From the NCBI GenBank assembly GCA_018267705.1, contig JAFDXX010000023.1, positions 365,769 through 429,768 on the forward strand: a stretch of DNA of 64,000 nt. Direction: 5' to 3'. Shown here piece after piece: positions 1,870 to 48,299 of the stretch. Source of the DNA: Bacteroidota bacterium. Its GTDB lineage: Bacteria; Bacteroidota; Bacteroidia; Chitinophagales; Chitinophagaceae. The translations under genes and the position numbers were made by a program. A model generated the notes under the pieces. That model searched no databases and was not told where the DNA came from. It saw nothing but the letters and a program-made list of their open reading frames with translations. The first letter of the stretch is position 1; each line of letters begins with the position of its first letter.

Positions 1870-1910
1870 TTGATGATTAAATAACAGAACGTACAAGTGT
1901 GCGACGCAAC
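1870..1910 (+). promoter_or_regulatory. Copy A of dispersed 41-nt motif: TTG-N19-TACAAGTG-TGCGACGCAAC
   Basis: Sequence ttgatgattaaataacagaacgtacaagtgtgcgacgcaac. Same architecture and orientation as copies at 13607-13647, 34199-34159 (minus) and 48259-48299. Ends 62 nt before the GTG start at 1973. Confidence 0.5.
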
Positions 1911-5641: not shown

Positions 5642-7195
5642 TTACTTATCAATTCCCTTTTTTATATCAAATTTTTTTCTGCGTATTTCTTGTACAGGTA
5701 CTTTTTGAATTTTACTTTCTAACCATGCAATAACATCTAAATACATAAACGATCGTGTTTCTATTGCATTACCTTCCAATTTTTCCAATTTTTCTTTTAA
5801 TAATTTAAATGAAGGAATAATTTTATGCGGAGATAATGAAAACGATTTTCTTATAAATCGAAATATTTCTTCTTCTACAACACTTAGGTTTTTCATTTTA
5901 GCCATAAATCTATAAACAGATTTTATTAAATATTCCAACAACTCATAATTGCCCAATTCAAAATGTGCAATTAAATGCAGCAAACGTGCATAGCATTGTA
6001 AATCAATTCTTAAATCATATTTCTGATTAATGATTTTGTTTAAGTATTCAATAGTTTTTTCGTTATTACCACTGCCAAAATATAAACAAGCTATTTTGTA
6101 ATAGAAGACTAACACTCTATGTTTATCTAAATGTAATTTATACGCTATAAGTTTTTCATTTATAATAGGCACTAATTGTAACCCTTCCGTAAATGTTCCT
6201 TCTAAAAAATGTTTATTAATTTTTGCAATATGTAAATACACAAATGTTTGAATGCGTACATTATCATTGGTTGCTGTACTCTGCGATTTTGAAAATACTT
6301 CAAACTGTTTTAGTGTTGTTTCAAATTTATCGTAATTGTTTAAATCAAAATGTGCACTTAATAAATTGTGTAACCCTTTTATATATTGGCTTGCTTCAAC
6401 CGTTTTCATTAAAGTATATTCTTCAAACAAATCAACCCACTTTTGAGTATATCGGTAATACATTAATAAATCTTGCAATATAAATCCATACCAACAAAAA
6501 GATTGATATAAATATAATTTTTCGTAAAAGGTTAGTGTTTGAAAATTATACGATGGTAAATTGGTCTCAAAAAATATTCTTACTGCGTGTACATCTCGTT
6601 CATCTCTTGCATGACCATGTTTTATATACCAACTATACAATTCTAATGAAAGGTTGGATAGTTTATTGGTAAGTGAAAGATGTGTAGTAATTGCATCAGA
6701 ATCTTTACTCAATTGCTCGGCACGGTTTTCTAAACTTCGTGTAATATGTAAGGCCTCAATTTTTTTTTCAAACAATATAGCTTGTAATTGATAAGTAATT
6801 TGATGATGTTGTTTTGCCGTTTCTTTTAATTTATCTAATACTTTTAAACTTTGTAAATACAACCCTTTATTGTATAATATTCTTGCAAAGTCCATCTGTT
6901 CATGCAATTGAATATCAATATTTTCTTTGTCTTCCAATACTCTAAGGCTCGATAGTATTTGTTTATACAAGTGAGCCCGCATATTAGAAAGTTGTTGCTT
7001 TAAAATATCTTTATTCTTTTTTAATAATAAAGTCTCATCATATTCAGTTGCTTTGTCTAACGCATCAAATAACTGTACAATTTTCAAATTTTCTCCACCC
7101 GAATTTCTTTGAACATATAGTTTAAAATTTCGTTTTTCGGCTTTAGTAAGCGACTTTATTAACTGAAAAAGTGTATCAGTACTTCTGTTGGGCAT
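5642..7195 (-). CDS. Hypothetical all-alpha (TPR-like?) cytoplasmic protein, 517 aa
   Basis: Long uninterrupted ORF with ATG start. No signal peptide and no motif I recognise. Helix-rich, repeat-like composition. Confidence 0.7.
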   Translation of the reverse strand: MPNRSTDTLFQLIKSLTKAEKRNFKLYVQRNSGGENLKIVQLFDALDKATEYDETLLLKKNKDILKQQLSNMRAHLYKQILSSLRVLEDKENIDIQLHEQMDFARILYNKGLYLQSLKVLDKLKETAKQHHQITYQLQAILFEKKIEALHITRSLENRAEQLSKDSDAITTHLSLTNKLSNLSLELYSWYIKHGHARDERDVHAVRIFFETNLPSYNFQTLTFYEKLYLYQSFCWYGFILQDLLMYYRYTQKWVDLFEEYTLMKTVEASQYIKGLHNLLSAHFDLNNYDKFETTLKQFEVFSKSQSTATNDNVRIQTFVYLHIAKINKHFLEGTFTEGLQLVPIINEKLIAYKLHLDKHRVLVFYYKIACLYFGSGNNEKTIEYLNKIINQKYDLRIDLQCYARLLHLIAHFELGNYELLEYLIKSVYRFMAKMKNLSVVEEEIFRFIRKSFSLSPHKIIPSFKLLKEKLEKLEGNAIETRSFMYLDVIAWLESKIQKVPVQEIRRKKFDIKKGIDK

Positions 7196-7383
7196 CGTAT
7201 TTTATTTTACTTAAAACCCTTATAAATAGGGCATTTTATAAAAAATAGTCTTGTTGCATATCGTAATAAACCAGCTATTTTAATTATTATACGGTACAAC
7301 TCTTCAATACTTTTAATTATACAACAACTACTTCATAGCAAGCAATAAAATTAATCTGTTATTCTTTATAAAGTAAACCTATC

Positions 7384-8547
7384 ATGAATAAAAATAAAGT
7401 GCACATTTTTGATACCACACTTCGTGATGGCGAACAAGTGCCCGGCTGCAAGTTAAACACCAAAGAAAAAATTGAATTGGCATTAGTATTAGAAAACTTA
7501 GGTGTTGATATTATTGAAGCAGGTTTTCCTATCTCCTCTCCCGGCGATTTTGAAAGTGTAACCGAAATTTCTAAAATTATAAAAAATGCTTCCATTTGTG
7601 GATTAAGCCGTGCAGTACAAAAAGATATTGAAACTGCTGCTGCTGCTTTAAAACATGCAAAGCATCCACGTATTCACACAGGTATTGGCACTTCCGATAT
7701 TCATATTAAAGGAAAATTTAATTCTACCAGAGAAGATATTTTGCAACGTGCCATACAATGTGTAAAGTGGGCAAAAAATTTTGTTGATGATGTTGAGTTT
7801 TATGCAGAAGATGCCGGCAGAACAGATAACGATTATTTAGCAAGTGTTGTAGAAAGCGTAATTAAAGCAGGTGCAACAGTTGTAAATATTCCCGATACAA
7901 CAGGTTACTGTTTACCACACCAATACGGAGAAAAAATTGCTTATTTAATTAATCATGTTCCTAATATCGATAAAGCAATTATTTCTTGTCATTGCCATAA
8001 CGATTTAGGTTTAGCAACTGCCAACTCAATTGCAGGTGTAATTGCAGGAGCAAGGCAAATTGAATGTACCATTAATGGTTTAGGAGAACGTGCAGGCAAT
8101 ACATCTTTAGAAGAAGTTGTAATGATTATTAAACAACATAAAGATTTAGGATTTTATACAAATATCAACTCTAAACAATTAAACCCAATGAGCCGTTTGG
8201 TGAGTGATACAATGCGTATGCCTGTTCAACCAAACAAAGCTATTGTTGGTGCAAATGCTTTCAGTCATTCATCGGGCATTCATCAAGATGGATTTTTAAA
8301 AAGTGCTATTACATATGAAATAATTAATCCCACCGAAGTTGGTGCAGATACCAGCAAAATAGTTTTAACTGCACGCAGTGGAAGAAGTGCATTGGCATTT
8401 CGTTTAAAAAATTTAGGTTATGATTTTAATAGAAATGAGGTAGATAATTTATATGAGAAATTCTTACAAATTGCAGATGCTAAAAAAGAAGTATTAGATG
8501 AAGATCTTCATGCAATGGCAAAAGTATTTGAAACAATTGAAGCATAA
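7384..8547 (+). CDS. leuA: 2-isopropylmalate synthase, short form (387 aa, no C-terminal regulatory domain)
   Basis: N-terminus [16 protein letters not shown]..., plus [13 protein letters not shown] and HSSGIHQDG motifs of the HMGL-like/LeuA family. First gene of the leuCDB cluster. Confidence 0.85.
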
Positions 8548-10715: not shown

Positions 10716-12176
10716 ATGCTAACATCAACCATTATAGTGCAAAATATCTGCGTTAATCAATACTCAAAAAATGTATTGAACAATGTTTCATTTATCCTTA
10801 ATACAAACGAGCATTTAGCAATTATTGGTGAAAGCGGAAGCGGGAAAACTATCTTGGCAAAAGCAATTGCAGGACAATTATTTTCAAAAGGGAATATTCA
10901 AATCAACTATTCAGAAAATGATAGCTTACAAAATAAAATTCTTTTTGTAGAACATACAGAAGTATATAAAAATCTATCAAACGTTTCAAACTTTTACTAT
11001 CAGCAACGTTTTAATAGTTGCGATGCAGATGATGCAAATACTTTACAACAAGAACTGCAAAAATTATCAACCAATAATTTTCAAGTTAATACTCTTTTAG
11101 AAAAATTAAATTTATTACACAGAATACGAACTCCATTAATTCAACTTTCTAACGGAGAGCAAAAAAAATTACAGATTATTAAAGCATTAATTCAACAACC
11201 AAAAATATTAATTCTTGATAAAGTATTTACCGGATTAGATACCAATAGCAGAAATGAATTAGAACAATTGCTTTATAATTTATCTACCAAAGGCACTACA
11301 ATTATTTTAATAACAGATGAAAACAATATCCCCTTTTTTCTAACACATATTGCAGTGCTAACAAATGGCAACTTAACTCAGTTTACACAAAAAGAAAATT
11401 TCAAATTAAGTACCACAAAAAATATTTCTTACAATCAAAACAAAATTCCTAAAAACCAACAACAGCAAACATTTCATTCAATTGTTTCAATGAAAAATGT
11501 TTCTGTTAGTTATATAAATAAAATAATTCTTCAAAATATTAATTGGCAAGTAAAACAAGGTGAACGTTGGCTAATAAAAGGAGCGAATGGTGCAGGCAAA
11601 TCAACTTTATTAAGTTTAATTACCGGCGATAATCCGCAAGCTTATGCAAACGAAATTTATTTGTTTGATAAAAAACGCGGCAGTGGTGAAAGCATTTGGG
11701 AATTAAAAAATAAAATAGGATATGTTTCACCCGAGTTACACAAATATTTCGATAAGTCTATCAACATTGAACATGCTGTTGCAAGTGGTTTTTACGATAC
11801 AATGGGTTTGTATAAACCTATCAGCATTCAGCAAAAAGAAAATATAAAGCAATGGTTAGATTTTTTTGGGCTATCTCATGTGCGTAACAAATCCCTTTCT
11901 GCGGTTTCTACCGGCGAACAACGTTTAGCTCTTATAGCAAGAGCTTTCGTAAAAAATCCGCCATTGCTTGTTTTAGATGAACCTTGTCAAAATTTAGACA
12001 ATAACCATATACAACAAATTATACAATTAATAAATAACCTCTGCTCACAAACAAATGCAACAATAATTTATGTAAGCCATTATACGAATGAAATACCGGA
12101 ATGTATTACCAACGTACTTGAATTAAATAATGGCATTGCAACTATTTATACTAAAGAAAAAATTAAAGTAGCCTAA
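10716..12176 (+). CDS. modF: ModF-like soluble ABC ATPase with two nucleotide-binding domains and no TM domain
   Basis: 486 aa. NBD1: GESGSGKT, LSNGEQKK, ILILDK (Lys in place of the catalytic Glu). NBD2: GANGAGKST, LSTGEQRLALIARAF, LLVLDEP. The segment GDNPQAYANEIYLFDKKRGSGESIWELKNKIGYVSPELH resembles E. coli ModF as I recall it. The ATG directly follows the leuD stop, and its own stop lies 1 nt before the leuB ATG. Confidence 0.8.
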   Translation: MLTSTIIVQNICVNQYSKNVLNNVSFILNTNEHLAIIGESGSGKTILAKAIAGQLFSKGNIQINYSENDSLQNKILFVEHTEVYKNLSNVSNFYYQQRFNSCDADDANTLQQELQKLSTNNFQVNTLLEKLNLLHRIRTPLIQLSNGEQKKLQIIKALIQQPKILILDKVFTGLDTNSRNELEQLLYNLSTKGTTIILITDENNIPFFLTHIAVLTNGNLTQFTQKENFKLSTTKNISYNQNKIPKNQQQQTFHSIVSMKNVSVSYINKIILQNINWQVKQGERWLIKGANGAGKSTLLSLITGDNPQAYANEIYLFDKKRGSGESIWELKNKIGYVSPELHKYFDKSINIEHAVASGFYDTMGLYKPISIQQKENIKQWLDFFGLSHVRNKSLSAVSTGEQRLALIARAFVKNPPLLVLDEPCQNLDNNHIQQIIQLINNLCSQTNATIIYVSHYTNEIPECITNVLELNNGIATIYTKEKIKVA

Positions 12177-13293: not shown

Positions 13294-13320
13294 CAAGATG
13301 AGTGATAAATAAAAAAGTTC

Positions 13321-13350
13321 TTTGTAGTTTCAATAGAGGTGTTACATTTG
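13321..13350 (+). promoter_or_regulatory. Bacteroidota-type sigma-A promoter (TTTG -33, 18-nt spacer, TAcaTTTG -7)
   Basis: tttg at 13321-13324 and tacatttg at 13343-13350, a perfect match to the TAnnTTTG -7 consensus. Lies 19 nt upstream of the leader ATG. Confidence 0.6.
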
Positions 13351-13368
13351 CATACACACAACACTTCT

Positions 13369-13467
13369 ATGGTATCAAGCAAGTTCAATAAGGCAATCAT
13401 CAGCAACATCGCAATTATTATTGTCATTATTATTCCTGCACTGCACGGAGGTGTAAGTATCATGTAA
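13369..13467 (+). CDS. 32-codon Ile/Val-rich leader peptide (candidate ilv attenuator leader)
   Basis: Translation MVSSKFNKAIISNIAIIIVIIIPALHGGVSIM*. It has 10 Ile and 3 Val; codons 16-22 are IIIVIII. Below the ORF-track size cutoff. Sits between a consensus promoter and a strong intrinsic terminator, upstream of ilvD. Confidence 0.65.
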   Translation: MVSSKFNKAIISNIAIIIVIIIPALHGGVSIM

Positions 13468-13488
13468 AAAATAACTTGTTATAACATG

Positions 13489-13517
13489 AAACCCGCCTCC
13501 AAAAAGGCGGGTTTTTT
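13489..13517 (+). terminator. Intrinsic terminator (attenuator terminator) upstream of ilvD
   Basis: aaacccgcc-tccaaaaa-ggcgggttt followed by ttt(a)ttt. The stem is 9 bp with a GC-rich core, followed by a U-run. Confidence 0.8.
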
Positions 13518-13583
13518 ATTTGTTATTACTATAAAAAATAAAAAAAAATATGAACCCAACTTTAACACATTAATGAAACACCT

Positions 13584-13647
13584 GTTGCGTCGCACTCTTC
13601 AACACATTGTTCAATATTGAACAAAACGTACAAGTGAGTGACACAAC
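13584..13647 (+). repeat. 64-nt imperfect palindrome containing copy B of the dispersed motif plus an inverted copy of its GC-rich core
   Basis: Left arm gttgcgtcgcactctt (13584-13599) is the exact reverse complement of aagagtgcgacgcaac found at 34174-34159. The centre holds a perfect 18-bp palindrome ttgttcaatattgaacaa (13607-13624). Right arm is aagtgagtgacacaac (13632-13647). The arms pair at 13 of 16 positions. Confidence 0.6.
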
Positions 13648-13690
13648 AAAAGCTAAATAAAATTACATAAGCTAAGTACAAAAAAATAAA

Positions 13691-15373
13691 ATGACAGAAT
13701 TAAACAAATACAGCAAAACACTAACACAAGATGCAACACAACCTGCAGCACAAGCAATGTATTATGCCATTGGTTTTAAAGAAGAAGATTTTTCAAAACC
13801 ACAAGTGGGCATTGTAAGCATGGGTTGGGATGGCAACCCTTGTAACATGCATCTAAACGATTTAGCAGCAAAAGTGAAAAAGAGTGTAAATAAAACAGGT
13901 TTATTAGGTTTAAACTTTTACACCATTGGCGTAAGCGATGGAATTAGTATGGGAACAGATGGTATGCGTTATAGTTTAGTAAGCAGAGATGTAATTGCCG
14001 ATAGCATTGAAACTAATGCAGGTGCTCAATATTACGATGCAATAATTGGTATTCCCGGCTGCGATAAAAATATGCCGGGTACTATTATGGCAATGGGAAG
14101 ATTAAATCGTCCGTCCATAATGTTGTATGGCGGCACTATTGCACCAGGGCATTATAAAGGCGAAGATTTAAATATAGTTTCTGCATTTGAAGCATTAGGA
14201 CAAAAAATTGCAGGCAACTTATCTGAAGGAGATTTCAAAGGAATCATTCAACATGCTTGTCCGGGTGCCGGTGCATGCGGTGGCATGTACACAGCAAATA
14301 CAATGGCTTCGGCCATTGAAGCATTGGGTATGAGTTTGCCATATTCATCATCCAACCCCGCATTAAGTAAAGAAAAACTAAAAGAATGTAATACTGTTGG
14401 TAAAGCAATAAAAACATTATTACAAAAAGATATTAAACCAAAAGATATTATGACACGTAAAGCATTTGAAAATGCAATTACAGTTGTAATGGTTTTGGGT
14501 GGAAGCACCAATGCTGTATTACATTTAATTGCTATGGCTAAAAGTGTAGGTATTGAATTAACGCAAGATGATTTTCAAAAAATAAGTAATAAAACACCCT
14601 TGCTTGCAGACTTTAAACCCAGCGGTAAATATTTAATGGAAGATTTGCATAAACATGGTGGCGTACCTGCAGTAATGAAATATTTATTAAGCAAAAAAAT
14701 GTTGCATGGAGATTGTTTAACCGTAACTGGAAAAACCATGAAACAAAATTTGAAAAAAGCACCCAATTTAAATTTTGAAATTCAAGATATTATTCACCCC
14801 ATAGAAAATCCTTTAAAAGCAACAGGGCATTTACAAATTCTTTACGGCAATCTTGCAACAGGCGGAAGTGTTGCAAAAATTACAGGAAAAGAAGGTGAAC
14901 GTTTTGAAGGAACAGCAAGAGTATTTGATGGCGAACATGATTTTATTAAAGGCATTCAAAATAAAAGAGTACATGCAGGAGATGTTGTTGTTATTAGAAA
15001 CATTGGTCCTAAAGGAGCACCTGGAATGCCCGAAATGCTTAAACCTACAGGAGCTTTAATTGGTGCAGGTTTGGGCAAAACTGTTGCATTAATTACCGAT
15101 GGAAGATTTAGCGGTGGTACACATGGTTTTGTAGTTGGGCATATTACACCTGAAGCATACAATGGAGGCTTAATAGGTTTAGTAGAAGATAATGATATTA
15201 TTGAAATTGATGCCGTAAAAAATACAATTACATTAAAAGTAAGTAACGAAATAATTGCACAACGCAAAGCTAATTGGAAACAACCTACCTTAAAAGCAAC
15301 TAACGGTGTTTTATACAAATATGCAAAATTAGTAAAAACTGCAGCCGAAGGCTGTGTAACAGATGAAGACTAA
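13691..15373 (+). CDS. ilvD: Dihydroxy-acid dehydratase
   Basis: 560 aa. ILVD/EDD family motifs ([29 protein letters not shown]). Confidence 0.95.
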
Positions 15374-15417
15374 TGATGAATGAGAATTACAAATTAAGAA
15401 TTATAAATTATTAATAT

Positions 15418-17190
15418 ATGAACGCTGAATTAAATACTATTGAATTATCAGAATCAAAAAAAACTATTACTCCATCTGTAGAAGTCGAAAGTAATATCTC
15501 AGGTTCTGTTGCAGTTTTAGAAGCATTGATTGCTGAAAATGTACAAACCATTTTCGGTTATCCCGGTGGTGCCATTATGCCTATATATGATGCATTATAT
15601 GATTATACTAACAAGCTAGAACATATATTGGTTAGACATGAACAAGGTTCTATTCATGCTGCTCAAGGTTTTGCAAGAACATCGGGAAAAGTGGGTGTAG
15701 TATTTGCAACAAGCGGTCCGGGAGCAACAAATCTTGTAACGGGTTTAGCAGATGCTATGATTGACAGCACCCCGCTTGTGTGTATTACAGGGCAAGTATT
15801 TGCTCATTTATTAGGTACCGATGCATTTCAAGAAACCGATATCATAAATATTACAACACCAGTTACAAAATGGAATTATCAAATTACCGATGCAACCGAA
15901 ATTCCACATGTATTAGCAAAAGCATTTTACATTGCAAAAACAGGAAGACCAGGACCTGTGTTGATTGATATTACCAAAAATGCACAACTTCAAAAATTTA
16001 ATTATAACGGCTACAAAAAATGCAATCATATAAGAAGTTATCGTCCTAAACCAATTGTTCGCAAAGAATATATTGAACAAGCTGCACAACTTATCAATCA
16101 AGCTAAAAAACCATTCGTAATTTTTGGGCAAGGTGTTATATTAGGCAAAGCAGAAAAAGAGTTTACACAATTTATTGAAAAAGGTGGCATACCCTCTGCA
16201 TGGACAATTATGGGCATGAGTGCCATTCCTACAACACATCCACTTGGCGTAGGTATGTTAGGAATGCACGGAAATTATGCACCCAATGTTTTAACCAATG
16301 AATGTGATGTTTTAATTGCAATAGGAATGCGTTTTGATGATAGAGTTACCGGAAGATTAGACAAATATGCTAAGCAAGCACAAATCATTCATTTTGATAT
16401 TGATCCCGCAGAAATAGATAAAAACGTAAAAACAACCATTCCTGTTTGGGGAGATTGTAAAGAAACTTTACCGCTACTCACACAATTAATTGAAAAGAAA
16501 AATCATAATGCATGGCTGCAACAATTTAGAGAATTAGAAAAAAAAGAAATAGAAAAAGTTATACATGATGAATTAAATCCTAAAGATGAAACAATGACAA
16601 TGGGCGAAGTAATTAAAACCATTAATGAATTAACCAATGGTAATGCAATTATTGTAACAGATGTTGGTCAGCATCAAATGGTGGCTTGCCGTTATGCAAA
16701 AATGAACCATTCAAAAAGCAATATAACAAGCGGTGGCTTAGGCACAATGGGCTTTGGTTTACCCGCTGCAATTGGTGCAAAATATGGAGATACAAAAAAA
16801 ACAGTTATTGCCATAATTGGTGATGGCGGCATACAAATGACCATTCAAGAATTAGGTACCATTATGCAGTTTAATATAGATGTAAAAATTTTAATATTAA
16901 ATAATCAATTTTTAGGAATGGTGCGTCAATGGCAACAACTCTTCCATGAAAAAAGATATTCGTTTGTAAATATTACTTCACCCGATTATGTGCAAGTAGC
17001 AAAAGGCTATGGTATTATAGGTAGCAGTATTTCTAAACGAGAAGATTTAAAAACTGCTTTACAAAATATGTTGCAACACAACGGAAGTTATTTATTAGAA
17101 GTAATGGTAGGTAAAGAAAATAATGTATTTCCTATGGTTCCGCAAGGGAAAGGCGTAGCTGAAATTGTATTAACAAAAGAAGAAATTTAA
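15418..17190 (+). CDS. ilvB: Acetolactate synthase large (catalytic) subunit
   Basis: 590 aa. ThDP enzyme pattern (GYPGGAIMPIYDAL, GLGTMGFGLPAAIGA, GDGGIQMTIQEL). Confidence 0.95.
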   Translation: MNAELNTIELSESKKTITPSVEVESNISGSVAVLEALIAENVQTIFGYPGGAIMPIYDALYDYTNKLEHILVRHEQGSIHAAQGFARTSGKVGVVFATSGPGATNLVTGLADAMIDSTPLVCITGQVFAHLLGTDAFQETDIINITTPVTKWNYQITDATEIPHVLAKAFYIAKTGRPGPVLIDITKNAQLQKFNYNGYKKCNHIRSYRPKPIVRKEYIEQAAQLINQAKKPFVIFGQGVILGKAEKEFTQFIEKGGIPSAWTIMGMSAIPTTHPLGVGMLGMHGNYAPNVLTNECDVLIAIGMRFDDRVTGRLDKYAKQAQIIHFDIDPAEIDKNVKTTIPVWGDCKETLPLLTQLIEKKNHNAWLQQFRELEKKEIEKVIHDELNPKDETMTMGEVIKTINELTNGNAIIVTDVGQHQMVACRYAKMNHSKSNITSGGLGTMGFGLPAAIGAKYGDTKKTVIAIIGDGGIQMTIQELGTIMQFNIDVKILILNNQFLGMVRQWQQLFHEKRYSFVNITSPDYVQVAKGYGIIGSSISKREDLKTALQNMLQHNGSYLLEVMVGKENNVFPMVPQGKGVAEIVLTKEEI

Positions 17191-17237
17191 AAGAAAAAAT
17201 TTTAGTTTAAAAAGCTGCTCTATCAAAAGTAAAAAAT

Positions 17238-17825
17238 ATGAAACAAGAATATACCATAACAATTTATACCGAGAACCAAATCGGTTTACTCAATCGCATT
17301 GCTATTATTTTTTCAAGAAGAAAAATAAGCATTGAAAGTTTCAACACTTCGCCAACAGAATCGGATAGTGTTTACAGGTTTACTATTGTGATAAATGAAA
17401 CAGAAGATGTTGTAAAAAAACTTTGCAAACAAATTGAAAAACAAGTTGAAGTTTTAAAAGCATACTACAACACCAACGATGAAATTGTATGGCAAGAAAT
17501 GGGTTTATTTAAAGTACCTGCCGATATTATTGCAGCCAAAGTTCCGGTAGAAAGGCTTTTACGCGAGTATGGAGCAAAAGCAGTTGTTATTCGTAACGAT
17601 TATATTGTTTTTGAAACCACAGGGCATAGAGAGGAAATTGAAAAATTAATTAACGCCTTAGAACCTTATGGGTTAATTGAATTTGTACGCAGTGCAAGAG
17701 TTGCTATTATTAAAAACAGCAAAGGATTTCACGATAAATTAAAAGAGTTTGAAAAAAGCGAACCAGCAGAAGAGTTAATTGAAAATGAGTTTTTAAACCA
17801 ACAAGAAGAAGTGTTTAGCATGTAA
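17238..17825 (+). CDS. ilvN: Acetolactate synthase small (regulatory) subunit
   Basis: 195 aa. N-terminal ACT domain (ITIYTENQIGLLNRIAIIFSRRKISIESF) and AHAS small-subunit C-terminal domain. Lies directly after ilvB. Confidence 0.9.
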   Translation: MKQEYTITIYTENQIGLLNRIAIIFSRRKISIESFNTSPTESDSVYRFTIVINETEDVVKKLCKQIEKQVEVLKAYYNTNDEIVWQEMGLFKVPADIIAAKVPVERLLREYGAKAVVIRNDYIVFETTGHREEIEKLINALEPYGLIEFVRSARVAIIKNSKGFHDKLKEFEKSEPAEELIENEFLNQQEEVFSM

Positions 17826-17908
17826 CAACCATATAAATGTTGAATAATATAATAAATAATAATCAATTCAACATTCAAACCTTAAAATAAAAAATAAAAA
17901 ACAACACA

Positions 17909-18961
17909 ATGGCAAAATTAAATTTTGGTGGCGTTGAAGAAAACGTTGTAACCCGCGATGAATTCCCTTTAGCAAAAGCTCAAGAAGTATTAAAAAATGA
18001 AACAGTTGCCGTAATTGGTTACGGCGTACAAGGCCCTGGGCAAGCATTAAACCAACGCGATAACGGAATTAATGTTATTGTTGGGCAAAGAAAAAATTCT
18101 AAAACATGGGATAAAGCCATTCGTGATGGTTTTGTTCCCGGCGAAACTTTATTTGAAATTGAAGAAGCATTACAACGTGGCACAATCATTTGCTATTTAT
18201 TAAGTGATGCTGCACAAATTGCACTATGGCCAACTGTACAAAAACATTTAACTGCAGGTAAAGCATTATATTTTTCTCATGGCTTTGGCATCACATTCAA
18301 TAATCAAACAAATATTATTCCTCCAAAAGATGTAGATGTTTTTTTAGTAGCACCAAAAGGTAGCGGTACAAGTTTAAGAAGAATGTTTTTACAAGGAAGA
18401 GGTTTAAACAGTTCTTACGCAATTTATCAAGATGCAACGGGCAAAGCAAAAGAAAGAGTAATTGCCTTGGGCATTGCAGTTGGCAGCGGATATTTATTTG
18501 AAACAGATTTTAAGAAAGAAGTATATAGTGATTTAACCGGTGAACGCGGAACATTAATGGGTTGCATACAAGGAATTTTTGCAGCACAATACCAAGTACT
18601 AAGAGAAAGAGGCCACTCTCCTTCTGAAGCATTTAATGAAACTGTTGAAGAATTAACACAATCATTAATGCCATTAGTTGCAGAAAATGGAATGGATTGG
18701 ATGTATGCAAACTGCTCTACCACTGCACAACGCGGTGCATTAGATTGGTGGAAAAAATTTAGAGATGCAACCTTACCTGTGTTTAATGACTTATATTCAA
18801 GCGTTGCAGCAGGAAAAGAAAGCCAACGAAGCATTGACAGCAACTCGCAAACTGATTATCGCGAAAAGTTAGATGCTGAATTAAAAGAATTACGTGAAAG
18901 TGAAATGTGGCAAGCAGGAAAAACAGTACGTTCACTTCGTCCTGAAAATCAAAAAGTATAA
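17909..18961 (+). CDS. ilvC: Ketol-acid reductoisomerase (class I)
   Basis: 350 aa. IGYGVQGPGQALNQRDNG NADP-binding motif and typical KARI C-terminal domain. Confidence 0.95.
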   Translation: MAKLNFGGVEENVVTRDEFPLAKAQEVLKNETVAVIGYGVQGPGQALNQRDNGINVIVGQRKNSKTWDKAIRDGFVPGETLFEIEEALQRGTIICYLLSDAAQIALWPTVQKHLTAGKALYFSHGFGITFNNQTNIIPPKDVDVFLVAPKGSGTSLRRMFLQGRGLNSSYAIYQDATGKAKERVIALGIAVGSGYLFETDFKKEVYSDLTGERGTLMGCIQGIFAAQYQVLRERGHSPSEAFNETVEELTQSLMPLVAENGMDWMYANCSTTAQRGALDWWKKFRDATLPVFNDLYSSVAAGKESQRSIDSNSQTDYREKLDAELKELRESEMWQAGKTVRSLRPENQKV

Positions 18962-20211
18962 TGCAATCAGCAACAACATATCAATTAGATTTCAATACTG
19001 CAAAGCAAAGACTTCACAATATTGCTTTACATACACCTTTACAACTCAATCATCATCTCTCAAAAAAATACAATTGCAAAATTTATTTAAAGCGAGAAGA
19101 TTTACAAATAGTGCGTTCTTACAAACTACGCGGTGCATATAATATGATGAGTAGTTTAACTACCGAACAGTTGCAACACGGTGTTGTTTGTGCAAGTGCC
19201 GGCAATCATGCACAAGGTTTTGCCTATAGTTGTAAAAAATTAAATGTAAAGGGCGTTGTATTTATGCCAAGCATTACACCCAAACAAAAAATAACACAAA
19301 CAAAAATGTTTGGAGAGGAAAATATAAAAATAAAATTGGTTGGCGATACTTACGATGATTGTGCCATTGCTGCAAAAAAATTCACCGAAGAAAATAATAT
19401 GGTTTTCATTCCTCCCTTTGATGATTATAAAATTATTGAAGGGCAAGGAACTGTTGGCGTTGAAATTTTAGAAGAACTAAACAATATTGATTATGTGTTT
19501 ATTCCGGTTGGCGGCGGCGGGCTAGCAGCAGGTATTGGCACATACTTTAAAACTTTTTCACCACAAACAAAAATTATTGGTTTAGAACCAGAAGGTGCAC
19601 CATCTATGCAGGCTGCATTAAAAGCAGGACATCCTGTTACATTAGAAACAATTGACAAGTTTGTGGATGGTGCTGCAGTAAAAAAAATTGGCGATATAAC
19701 TTTTGCATTATGTAAAAATGTATTAAGTGATATGCATTCTATTCCTGAAGGAAAAGTTTGTTCAACCATTTTAAAATTATATAACGAAGATGCAATTGTT
19801 GTTGAACCTGCAGGTGCATTAAGCATTGCAGCATTAGACAATTATGCAAATGAAATAAAAGGGAAAACCATTGTGTGTATTGTAAGTGGTAGTAATAATG
19901 ATATTGATAGAATGCCGGAAATAAAAGAACGCAGTTTGCAATACGAAGGATTAAAACATTATTTCTTAGTTCGTTTTGCACAACGCCCAGGTGCATTAAA
20001 AGAATTTGTAAATTATGTGTTAGGAAAGAATGATGACATTACACGTTTTGAATACATGCAAAAAACAAATAAAGAGTCAGGGCATGCGTTGGTAGGTATT
20101 GAGTTACAACGAAAAGAAGATTATAAACACTTAATGGAAAAAATGAAACAATATGGAATTGATTATTCTGAAATTAATAAAAACGATACACTATTTGGAT
20201 ATTTAATTTAA
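18961..20211 (+). CDS. ilvA: Threonine ammonia-lyase (biosynthetic threonine dehydratase)
   Basis: 416 aa. PLP-dependent motifs (KREDLQIVRSYKLRGAYN, GNHAQG, GGGGL) and one C-terminal ACT-like domain. The ATG overlaps the ilvC stop by 1 nt (TAATG). Confidence 0.9.
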   Translation: MQSATTYQLDFNTAKQRLHNIALHTPLQLNHHLSKKYNCKIYLKREDLQIVRSYKLRGAYNMMSSLTTEQLQHGVVCASAGNHAQGFAYSCKKLNVKGVVFMPSITPKQKITQTKMFGEENIKIKLVGDTYDDCAIAAKKFTEENNMVFIPPFDDYKIIEGQGTVGVEILEELNNIDYVFIPVGGGGLAAGIGTYFKTFSPQTKIIGLEPEGAPSMQAALKAGHPVTLETIDKFVDGAAVKKIGDITFALCKNVLSDMHSIPEGKVCSTILKLYNEDAIVVEPAGALSIAALDNYANEIKGKTIVCIVSGSNNDIDRMPEIKERSLQYEGLKHYFLVRFAQRPGALKEFVNYVLGKNDDITRFEYMQKTNKESGHALVGIELQRKEDYKHLMEKMKQYGIDYSEINKNDTLFGYLI

Positions 20212-48258: not shown

Positions 48259-48299
48259 ATGTTCAATAAAGAACAAAACGTATAAGTGAGTGACACAAC
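48259..48299 (+). promoter_or_regulatory. Copy D of dispersed motif: aTG-N19-TATAAGTG-AGTGACACAAC
   Basis: Sequence atgttcaataaagaacaaaacgtataagtgagtgacacaac, identical to copy B (13607-13647) at 37 of 41 positions. Ends 55 nt upstream of the ychF ATG. Confidence 0.5.

Follow-up and report, generated by a model that had tools for sequence, protein, structure and literature searches.

The branched-chain amino-acid genes ilvDBNCA in a 64,000-nucleotide (nt) stretch of DNA from a Chitinophagaceae bacterium (the window; contig JAFDXX010000023.1 of assembly GCA_018267705.1) are preceded by a compact leader whose features point to a ribosome-mediated (leader-peptide) transcription attenuator, one that would set expression of these genes by the supply of charged tRNA-Ile and tRNA-Val. 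We place the probability of this reading at roughly 0.85. Lying between leuB and ilvD, the leader comprises a promoter of the Bacteroidota type, a 32-codon open reading frame (ORF) rich in isoleucine (Ile) and valine (Val) codons, and an intrinsic terminator whose 5' arm is also complementary to a set of glycine (Gly)-Gly-Val codons near the end of the ORF (Table 1). These parts, their conservation among relatives, their complementarity and their spacing are computational observations. The leader-peptide mechanism as such is textbook knowledge, and an ilvE leader of like design is already known from Flavobacterium psychrophilum. What is new is an unannotated and uncurated family of leaders in the Chitinophagaceae, covered by no Rfam, Pfam or NCBIfam model, and what goes beyond the textbook is its compact design, in which Gly codons make up a G box whose distance from the sensor codons is fixed at 12 nt, a translation-initiation region that may serve as region 1, and a layout common to two Bacteroidota classes.

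The leader ORF encodes MVSSKFNKAIISNIAIIIVIIIPALHGGVSIM, a peptide in which 10 of the 32 codons specify Ile and three Val, next to a single leucine (Leu). Its regulatory run, IIIVIII, takes up codons 16–22, and other Ile codons stand at positions 10, 11 and 14. When all ATG-initiated ORFs of 12–60 codons on both strands of the window (n = 888) served as background, this was the sole ORF in which at least six of eight consecutive residues are Ile or Val, and such a unique outlier is not the chance product of an AT-rich genome (the window has a G+C content of 31.5%). The 171-nt leader region folds at a z score of -3.3 relative to shuffled sequences. With this composition control would be specific for Ile and Val and not for Leu, in keeping with the lack of a Leu-rich leader before leuA; neither a Leu-rich nor any other leader ORF was found in the region upstream of that gene (7196–7383). 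In none of the public records examined is the leader ORF annotated as a gene, and the record of a metagenome-assembled genome whose IlvD is 100% identical to that of the window (GCA_018267835.1, contig JAFDXT010000001.1, 'Bacteroidetes bacterium') has zero genes annotated from leuB to ilvD.

Relatives were collected by an IlvD protein scan with one genome per species, which gave 80 loci, almost all from Chitinophagaceae, at IlvD identities of 75–86%. The original prediction, made from the letters of the window, had listed loss of the ORF or its Ile/Val run in relatives among the outcomes that would refute it, and a mechanical ORF scan located one such short ORF in 50 of the 80 loci, clearly as members of one peptide family. 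Carriers of the leader include Terrimonas sp. R1 (L008), Longitalea arenae (L039) and Niastella populi (L047). The family leader always lies on the ilv coding strand, just 3' of leuB and immediately 5' of ilvE or ilvD, and the ~590 kilobases (kb), scanned on either strand, held only two other Ile/Val-run hits, both marginal. The 51 leader sequences of the comparative alignment (A1) have a mean length of 32.0 codons, of which on average 7.8 specify Ile and 5.2 Val, but only 2.1 Leu (24%, 16% and 6.6% of residues, respectively). Their peptide consensus reads M.K..NN.I...IIIVVVIIIPA.HGGG and that of the codon run ATTATTATTGTGGTnGTnATTATTATT, with MLKSTVNNVLNIATIIIVVVVIIPALNGGGSLV and MLQSRINNVIKNVAVITIVIVIIIPALHGG as examples of complete peptides. 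Six contigs of very close relatives (IlvD identity 90–97%) retain the leader as well, in one case (MSVNKFNKAIINNIAIIIAIVIIIPALHGGVSIM) with a 9-nt insertion inside the codon run, and in these same contigs indels and substitutions have accumulated in the spacer 3' of the terminator.

Two minor features of the leader codons may be recorded here. The sensor codons are partly self-complementary, CACAAU UAUU AUUGUG extending over the Thr/Ala-Ile-Ile-Ile-Val-Val codons (e.g., window positions 13410–13425), and the conserved Asn-Asn codons AAUAAU of the family are complementary to the Ile-Ile codons AUUAUU; this could amount to a weak pause hairpin or be a mere by-product of codon repetition. In addition, ATT accounts for 68% of the Ile codons in leaders vs. 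41% in ilvD genes.

The promoter of the original prediction, TTTG followed by an 18-nt spacer and TAcaTTTG, is present at 13321–13324 and 13343–13350, and is separated from the leader ATG by 18 nt, one fewer than the 19 nt first given. An aGTTCTTTG block is kept upstream of nearly all 51 leaders, and the family promoter as a whole can be written as aGTTCTTTG, ~19 nt, TAtATTyG. Whereas 1.1% of random 75-nt windows contain its -33/-7 arrangement, 47 of the 51 leaders do, and in 42 of these 47 the -7 box ends 15–19 nt 5' of the leader ATG. From the position of this motif, transcription is predicted to start near 13357, which would leave a 5' untranslated region (5' UTR) of ~12 nt (~10–12 nt in the family). 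The family 5' UTR contains no Shine-Dalgarno sequence, and Bacteroidota are known to initiate translation without one.

A pattern scan placed a terminator of 11 pairs, six of them G-C, together with a T-run at 13488–13515, making it the strongest terminator-like site in the 12–15 kb section, and the hairpin alone folds at -17.9 kcal/mol, so that the strong terminator claimed 21 nt after the leader stop codon was borne out. In the family this element is near-invariant (CCCGCCUCC, loop, GGCGGG, U-run) and begins 22–40 nt after the stop codon. RNAalifold recovered it from the 51 sequences, with compensatory changes in its two outer pairs and a G-C to A-U replacement in locus L056, and when given the full leader alignment returned the terminator only. 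In many relatives the terminator stands so close to the next gene (8, 9 and 15 nt from the end of the U-run to the ilvD ATG in L029, L014 and L011, respectively, and 17–30 nt 5' of the ilvE ATG in many others) that the intervening 8–30 nt are too short for a Bacteroidota promoter. The downstream genes of those relatives would therefore be transcribed only by read-through, and since read-through is required, termination must be conditional.

The alternative pairing that had been pointed out in the window, GGAGGUG with CGCCUCC (seven base pairs (bp) with one G-U, enclosing a UCAUGU...ACAUGA hairpin), is likewise present, and its elements are conserved in the family. The G box, GGAGG(U/C/A)GG, is near-invariant in the 51 leaders and is made by Gly-Gly codons, the first of which is GGA in 46 of 48 leaders, whereas in ilvD of the same loci Gly is encoded by GGA in 25% of cases, a bias arguing for a constraint on the RNA rather than on the peptide. 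On the other strand, the UCC of CCUCC lies inside the terminator loop and is nonetheless over 90% conserved in the 51 sequences; the terminator does not need these nucleotides, whereas pairing with GGAGG does. In alignment A1, 88.9% of the cells of the helix GGAGGUGG:CCGCCUCC are paired, as opposed to 47–58% when the partner is slid by 1–3 columns, and RNAalifold applied to the segment preceding the terminator 3' arm predicts exactly the GGAGG:CCUCC helix. One-sided changes retain the pairing, either as G-C (U to C in L011, L029 and L065) or as G-U (A to G in L017), and in L056 a G to A change in the terminator arm, compensated within the terminator, turns the antiterminator G-U into A-U. A small hairpin similar to the one enclosed by this helix (GUAU...AUAC type) is visible by eye in many relatives and in the F. 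psychrophilum leader. The putative antiterminator is thus well supported by conservation, complementarity and codon bias, without being proven by covariation.

The geometry of the leader fits a device read by ribosomes. In 42 of the 51 leaders, 12 nt separate the last Ile/Val codon from GGAGG (range 9–21), and the stop codon follows GGAGG at a distance of 6, 9, 12, 15 or 18 nt in all 51, never more. As a bacterial ribosome protects ~12–15 nt on each side of its decoding centre, a ribosome stalled in the run would leave the G box just exposed, and one standing at the stop codon would cover at least half of it. Energies agree with such a switch: the antiterminator domain of the window (-17.8 kcal/mol) nearly equals the terminator hairpin. 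When the RNA ends at 13505 and is masked to a point between 13435 and 13441 the antiterminator domain forms (-17.8 to -18.1 kcal/mol), and a mask up to 13480, imitating a ribosome that has reached the stop codon, leaves the terminator as the only possible structure. Sequential folds of untranslated RNA begin with ACACUUCU, just 5' of the AUG, paired to GGAGGUGU; this pairing, also part of the minimum-free-energy structure of the window leader, is seen in folds of RNA ending no later than 13490 and returns after 13512. With RNA ends at 13500–13505 the structure of minimum free energy is the antiterminator, and from 13512 onwards the 5' UTR pairing and the terminator prevail together. The modelled folding order would correspond to a four-region logic in which the translation-initiation region acts as region 1, an arrangement that is possible for the window and weakly supported across the family.

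In the E. coli ilv attenuator a stalled ribosome leads to the antiterminator and an unimpeded ribosome to termination, and a similar sequence of events may be envisaged here. Transcription from the -33/-7 promoter would start ~12 nt upstream of the leader AUG, and transcripts out of leuB would also enter the leader because no terminator separates the two. With Ile and Val plentiful, the ribosome would reach the stop codon at 13465 and so cover GGAGGUG (13447–13453), whereupon the CCCGCC/GGCGGG hairpin with its U-run (13489–13517) could form and RNA polymerase would stop before ilvD. With Ile or Val scarce, the ribosome would stall in the IIIVIII run (13414–13434), leaving GGAGGUG, 12 nt downstream of the run, free to pair with CGCCUCC (13494–13500) once that segment has been made; sequestration of the terminator 5' arm would then allow the polymerase to read through into ilvD. 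If the leader were not translated at all, the pyrimidine tract ACACUUCU could hold GGAGGUGU, favouring termination. We infer the transcription start, the stalling, the kinetic competition of structures and the response to Ile and Val from sequence.

Comparative conservation, complementarity, the GGA bias and the spacing thus argue for the ribosome-mediated attenuator first proposed for this region, and a number of observations weigh against it. In about 30 of the 80 loci the 3 kb examined contain no leader, and leuB directly abuts ilvD in about 11 of these. The search for compensatory changes, suggested from the start, succeeded for the terminator (its outer pairs and L056) and failed for the antiterminator, in which no pair has changed on both sides and shuffled alignments reach the observed values; this control is uninformative, and double changes are missing, because both antiterminator strands are almost invariant. 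The comparison of fold energies, likewise suggested, gave near-equal values for the two competing hairpins, and for the full-length RNA it favours the terminator form by 4.5 kcal/mol (-38.2 vs. -33.7), so that antitermination must be kinetic, as it is in classical attenuators. Nor is a canonical 1:2 anti-antiterminator or pause hairpin established across the family: structure inside the ORF has a mean z of only -1.1 (10 of 51 leaders below -2), and the duplex between 5' UTR and GGAGG is weak (mean z = -0.9, with p < 0.05 in eight of 51). Finally, the 173 nt from terminator to ilvD in the window (13518–13690) make a longer spacer than in many relatives, one that carries a repeated motif and a palindrome and could provide an additional, leader-independent input to ilvD.

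Several structural candidates were set aside in the course of the analysis. A conserved pause hairpin within the ORF (AAUAAU/AUUAUU or CACAAU/AUUGUG) was not retained, its signal being modest, and the 5' UTR pairing CCUUC:GGAGG was dropped as a family-wide region 1. Capture of the terminator 3' arm by the Pro-Ala codons (CCUGC:GGCGG) occurs in the forced antiterminator fold and has 85% of its cells paired in the 51 sequences, but was discarded as G-U rich and non-covarying.

The leaderless loci mostly have leuB abutting ilvD or ilvE, or else a truncated flank. In L027, L031, L045, L046, L049, L050, L061, L063, L079 and L080, as well as in the Sediminibacterium loci L062 and L066–L069, the gap from leuB to ilvD or ilvE-ilvD is ~10–130 nt and no Ile/Val leader occurs in the 3 kb examined. 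Where leuB abuts in this manner, the leu and ilv genes seem to have been fused into one operon, and the attenuator has either disappeared or been relocated to a site 5' of the entire cluster.

Conservation of the peptide could also mean that the ORF encodes a real small hydrophobic membrane protein, single-pass or type I toxin-like, with a promoter and terminator of its own and an ilv neighbourhood that is incidental. The bracketing of the ORF by promoter and terminator suits this idea, as do the persistence of the peptide sequence across 50 loci and the basic N-terminus followed by ~17 hydrophobic residues, which resembles a transmembrane segment. Yet that hydrophobic stretch is almost purely Ile and Val, residues that make up 24% and 16% of the family leaders against 6.6% for Leu, and conservation at the C-terminus is explained by the RNA, namely by the GGA codon (46 of 48) and the complementarity to the terminator arm. 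Moreover, the ORF always directly precedes ilvE or ilvD, no Pfam or NCBIfam small-protein family matches it, and in many loci a dependent gene only 8–30 nt beyond the terminator needs read-through. This explanation was rejected on the grounds of composition and of that dependence, and we regard it as extremely improbable. The same proximity bears on a different proposal, in which the hairpin is a constitutive terminator of the leu operon or of the leader transcript and ilvDBNCA is transcribed from a separate promoter within 13518–13690. Attractive features of the latter are the strength of the terminator, the unusually long 173-nt spacer, and the presence there of a stable palindrome (z = -3.5) and of a motif (13626–13647) that precedes two unrelated genes as well. 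It is nevertheless very unlikely, as neither a TAnnTTTG nor a relaxed -7 box was found in 13518–13690, most leader-bearing relatives are without the spacer motif, and relatives with leader and terminator 8–40 nt from the start codon have no room for a promoter; it also leaves unexplained the GGAGG:CCUCC complementarity and the ribosome-scale spacing.

In an alternative form of conditional control, termination at 13517 would depend on an RNA-binding protein, a small RNA, or Rho and translation-coupling effects acting on GGAGG/CCUCC, with the Ile/Val codons of secondary importance. Invariant GGAGG and CCUCC segments are what protein- or RNA-binding sites often look like, and the lack of covariation in the antiterminator and of a clear 1:2 pause hairpin would be natural under such control. 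On the other hand, the Ile/Val run is kept in every homologue and in the independent lineage of F. psychrophilum, the fixed 12-nt gap from run to G box and the distance of at most 18 nt from G box to stop codon match the footprint of a ribosome, and the design parallels the experimentally established attenuator of E. coli ilvGMEDA. There is accordingly little to commend this third possibility, and the leader-peptide attenuator remains the preferred reading.

The leader lies outside the curated families. In Rfam, the 7–21 kb section searched at an E-value threshold gave only sub-threshold, terminator-driven matches, the best to Phe_leader (33.2 bits vs. a gathering threshold of 55), with Thr_leader at 25.3 bits (gathering threshold 55), and the whole window contains nothing at the gathering threshold. 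The leader peptides of the window, its relatives and F. psychrophilum had no Pfam match, and in NCBIfam gave spurious matches only (E ≥ 0.06). The architecture is all the same that of the leaders which Rfam does describe (Leu, Thr, His, Trp, Phe, and the Bacteroidetes trp leader), i.e., a short ORF with cognate codons followed by a terminator with an alternative pairing.

Among the closest known systems is ilvL of the E. coli ilvXGMEDA operon, which also has a 32-codon leader, an Ile/Val run followed by proline (Pro) and Gly codons, and an intrinsic terminator before the first ilv gene. IlvL as read from NC_000913 is MTALLRVISLVVISVVVIIIPPCGAALGRGKA; its length of 32 residues is as the original prediction stated, but the motif is VVVIIIPP and not VVIIIPP. 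There is no detectable sequence-family relationship between ilvL and the window leader. The E. coli leader also contains many Leu codons and responds to all three amino acids, whereas that of the window has a single Leu, lacks a Shine-Dalgarno sequence and has a 5' UTR of only ~12 nt; the last codons of the window ORF contain the whole 5' strand of the antiterminator, and a 1:2 hairpin in the coding region is not evident. The shared length and '(V)VVIIIP' motif are best read as convergence, since Pro and Gly codons give G+C-rich stems directly after the sensor codons.

Within the phylum, attenuators in Bacteroidetes/Chlorobi were reportedly predicted in 2004 by Vitreschak and colleagues. The statement that little documentation of such control exists for Bacteroidota holds only in part, as F. 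psychrophilum has a leader MRKFNIIPSIIIAIVIITTAKGML, Ile-rich and with a mapped transcription start and a 9-nt 5' UTR, before ilvE-ilvD-ilvB-ilvH, and leaders rich in His and in aromatic residues as well as a Bacteroidetes trp leader RNA have been reported there (Guerin et al., PMC9723704). In Bacteroides thetaiotaomicron, short ORFs 'reminiscent of leader peptides' have been noted (Ryan et al. 2020, PMC7366714). Re-analysis of the F. psychrophilum sequence (PMC9723704 supplement) puts a 12-nt gap between its last Ile codon and GGAAUGCU, a box that forms a duplex of -8.7 kcal/mol with the terminator arm AGCCUUCC. The two leaders therefore have in common the phylum, the type of operon, a short 5' UTR, a 12-nt gap to a Gly-codon box and an A/U hairpin in the antiterminator loop. 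They differ in class (Flavobacteriia vs. Chitinophagia), in length (24 vs. 32 codons), in the box itself (GGAAUGCU:AGCCUUCC vs. GGAGGUGG:CCGCCUCC in the window family) and in organization, with three tandem leader-terminator units in F. psychrophilum and one in the window, and may be either homologous or convergent. The 437-nt ilvE 5' region of F. psychrophilum holds three Ile-rich leader ORFs, MRKFNIIPSIIIAIVIITTAKGML, MTTNTIIIISIIIRSFE and MTTNTIIIIISIIIRSFE, each with its own terminator (PMC9723704 supplement file 8), only the first of which is named in the table of that paper. Judged by their sequence, the three tandem units look like a serial, multi-stage attenuator. Further afield, leader peptides carrying branched-chain codons and acting on an ilv operon via a terminator are reported for Corynebacterium glutamicum ilvBNC and Staphylococcus aureus ilv-leu (PMC11857589, PMC5794164); they belong to other phyla, have other codon specificities (Leu-rich in S. 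aureus), follow three-hairpin models and bear no sequence similarity to the present family.

The present findings confirm and extend existing knowledge and overturn none of it. They offer a testable account of branched-chain amino-acid regulation in Chitinophagaceae, abundant soil and freshwater Bacteroidota in which regulation of this pathway is unannotated, and the 51-sequence alignment could seed a family, improving annotation. The layout held in common with Flavobacterium suggests that a compact attenuator design exists in two or more classes of a phylum that initiates translation differently from E. coli. A more far-reaching proposal, which on present indications seems unlikely, is that of a minimal attenuator used throughout the Bacteroidota, its antiterminator strand embedded in obligatory Gly-Gly codons (GGAGG, resembling a Shine-Dalgarno sequence) separated from the last sensor codon by a constant 12 nt, and its initiation region serving as anti-antiterminator, such that the loading or queuing of ribosomes would be decisive along with their stalling; in the window a second layer of ilvD control might perhaps be added by the 64-bp quasi-palindrome of the spacer.

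Table 1. Features of the ilvDBNCA leader and its surroundings (window positions).
Feature	Position	Strand	Remarks
-33 promoter element AGTTCTTTG	13316–13324	+	core TTTG 13321–13324; read from sequence
-7 promoter element TACATTTG	13343–13350	+	Bacteroidota TAnnTTTG type; 18-nt spacer from TTTG; read from sequence
Possible region 1 (anti-antiterminator) ACACUUCU	13361–13368	+	just 5' of AUG; can pair with GGAGGUGU 13447–13454
Leader ORF, encodes MVSSKFNKAIISNIAIIIVIIIPALHGGVSIM	13369–13467	+	32 codons + stop; ATG 13369, TAA 13465–13467
Regulatory codon run IIIVIII, codons 16–22	13414–13434	+	ATT ATT ATT GTC ATT ATT ATT; read from sequence
CCUGC (Pro-Ala codons)	13435–13439	+	may capture terminator 3' arm GGCGG 13506–13510 in antiterminated form; speculative
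Region 2, antiterminator 5' strand GGAGGUG (Gly-Gly-Val codons)	13447–13453	+	7 bp with 13494–13500, one G-U
Small A/U-rich hairpin UCAUGU...ACAUGA	13460–13488	+	within antiterminator helix; overlaps stop codon
Intrinsic terminator (regions 3, 4)	13489–13517	+	21 nt after leader stop codon
Terminator 5' arm AAACCCGCC	13489–13497	+	
Region 3, CGCCUCC	13494–13500	+	3' strand of antiterminator
Terminator loop UCCAAAAA	13498–13505	+	
Terminator 3' arm GGCGGGUUU	13506–13514	+	U-run to 13517
64-bp quasi-palindrome, arms GTTGCGTCGCACTCTTCAAC, GTACAAGTGAGTGACACAAC	13584–13647		between attenuator and ilvD; fold z = -3.5
22-nt motif copies	13626–13647, 48278–48299, 1889–1910	+	43–63 nt 5' of + strand start codons
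ilvD	13691–15373	+	above NCBIfam cut-off
ilvB	15418–17190	+	above NCBIfam cut-off
ilvN	17238–17825	+	above NCBIfam cut-off
ilvC	17909–18961	+	above NCBIfam cut-off
ilvA	18961–20211	+	above NCBIfam cut-off
Putative regulated gene set ilvDBNCA	13691–20211	+	5 genes

NCBIfam profiles give the order of genes around the leader as leuA-leuC-leuD-ABC-type ATPase-leuB, leader, ilvD-ilvB-ilvN-ilvC-ilvA, all five downstream genes being those originally assigned. The closest named genera by IlvD are Puia, Parafilimonas, Ferruginibacter and Terrimonas (Chitinophagaceae), at 85–88% identity. The product of leuA (7384–8547) is only 387 residues long and aligns to positions 3–382 of a 516-position isopropylmalate synthase profile, so that the C-terminal regulatory domain responsible for Leu feedback appears to be missing. 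With a Leu leader lacking as well, no Leu-specific control of the leucine branch is visible. Nothing but an A/T-rich tract and, near 7217–7236, a CCCUUAUAAAUAGGG hairpin with its T-run was seen in the region upstream of leuA (7196–7383); the hairpin is probably the terminator of the convergent or divergent neighbour on the - strand (5642–7195). The ATPase gene interposed between leuD and leuB (10716–12176) encodes a ModF-like double ABC ATPase.

As to the spacer between terminator and ilvD, a second promoter within it was set aside for want of a -7-like box. Its repeated element is an oriented 22-nt intergenic motif, ACGTACAAGTGAGTGACACAAC with variant GTACAAGTGTGCGACGCAAC, that has three matches in the window vs. 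none expected by chance and no Rfam match. The genes that follow these copies are ilvD and those of a ychF-like ATPase and a nitrilase-family amidase, and downstream of each copy come an A-rich tract and a short hairpin that varies between copies (AGCU..AGCU, ACAG..CUGU or UAAC..GUUA). Among relatives, it occurs just 5' of ilvD in L002, L004, L016, L040 and L043, near 7197 and 5' of ilvC in L060, and near 7374 in L053, and most leader-bearing relatives lack it in the spacer. Possible roles of the motif are those of a 5' UTR element, an RNA-processing element or an unusual promoter; since it lies 3' of the attenuator terminator, it could provide further control of ilvD that does not involve the leader.

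In the window, the 22-nt motif forms one arm of the 64-bp quasi-palindrome. Strains with 96–97% IlvD identity to the window carry palindromes of the same length (64 bp after the anchor GAAACACCT in L082 and L086) between identical flanks, and the copy in L086 and L087 is the reverse complement of that in L082, with 62 of 64 positions identical after inversion vs. 48 of 64 in direct comparison. So clean an inversion could stem from a switch that works by site-specific inversion, from template switching, or from insertion of a small palindromic mobile element in either orientation.

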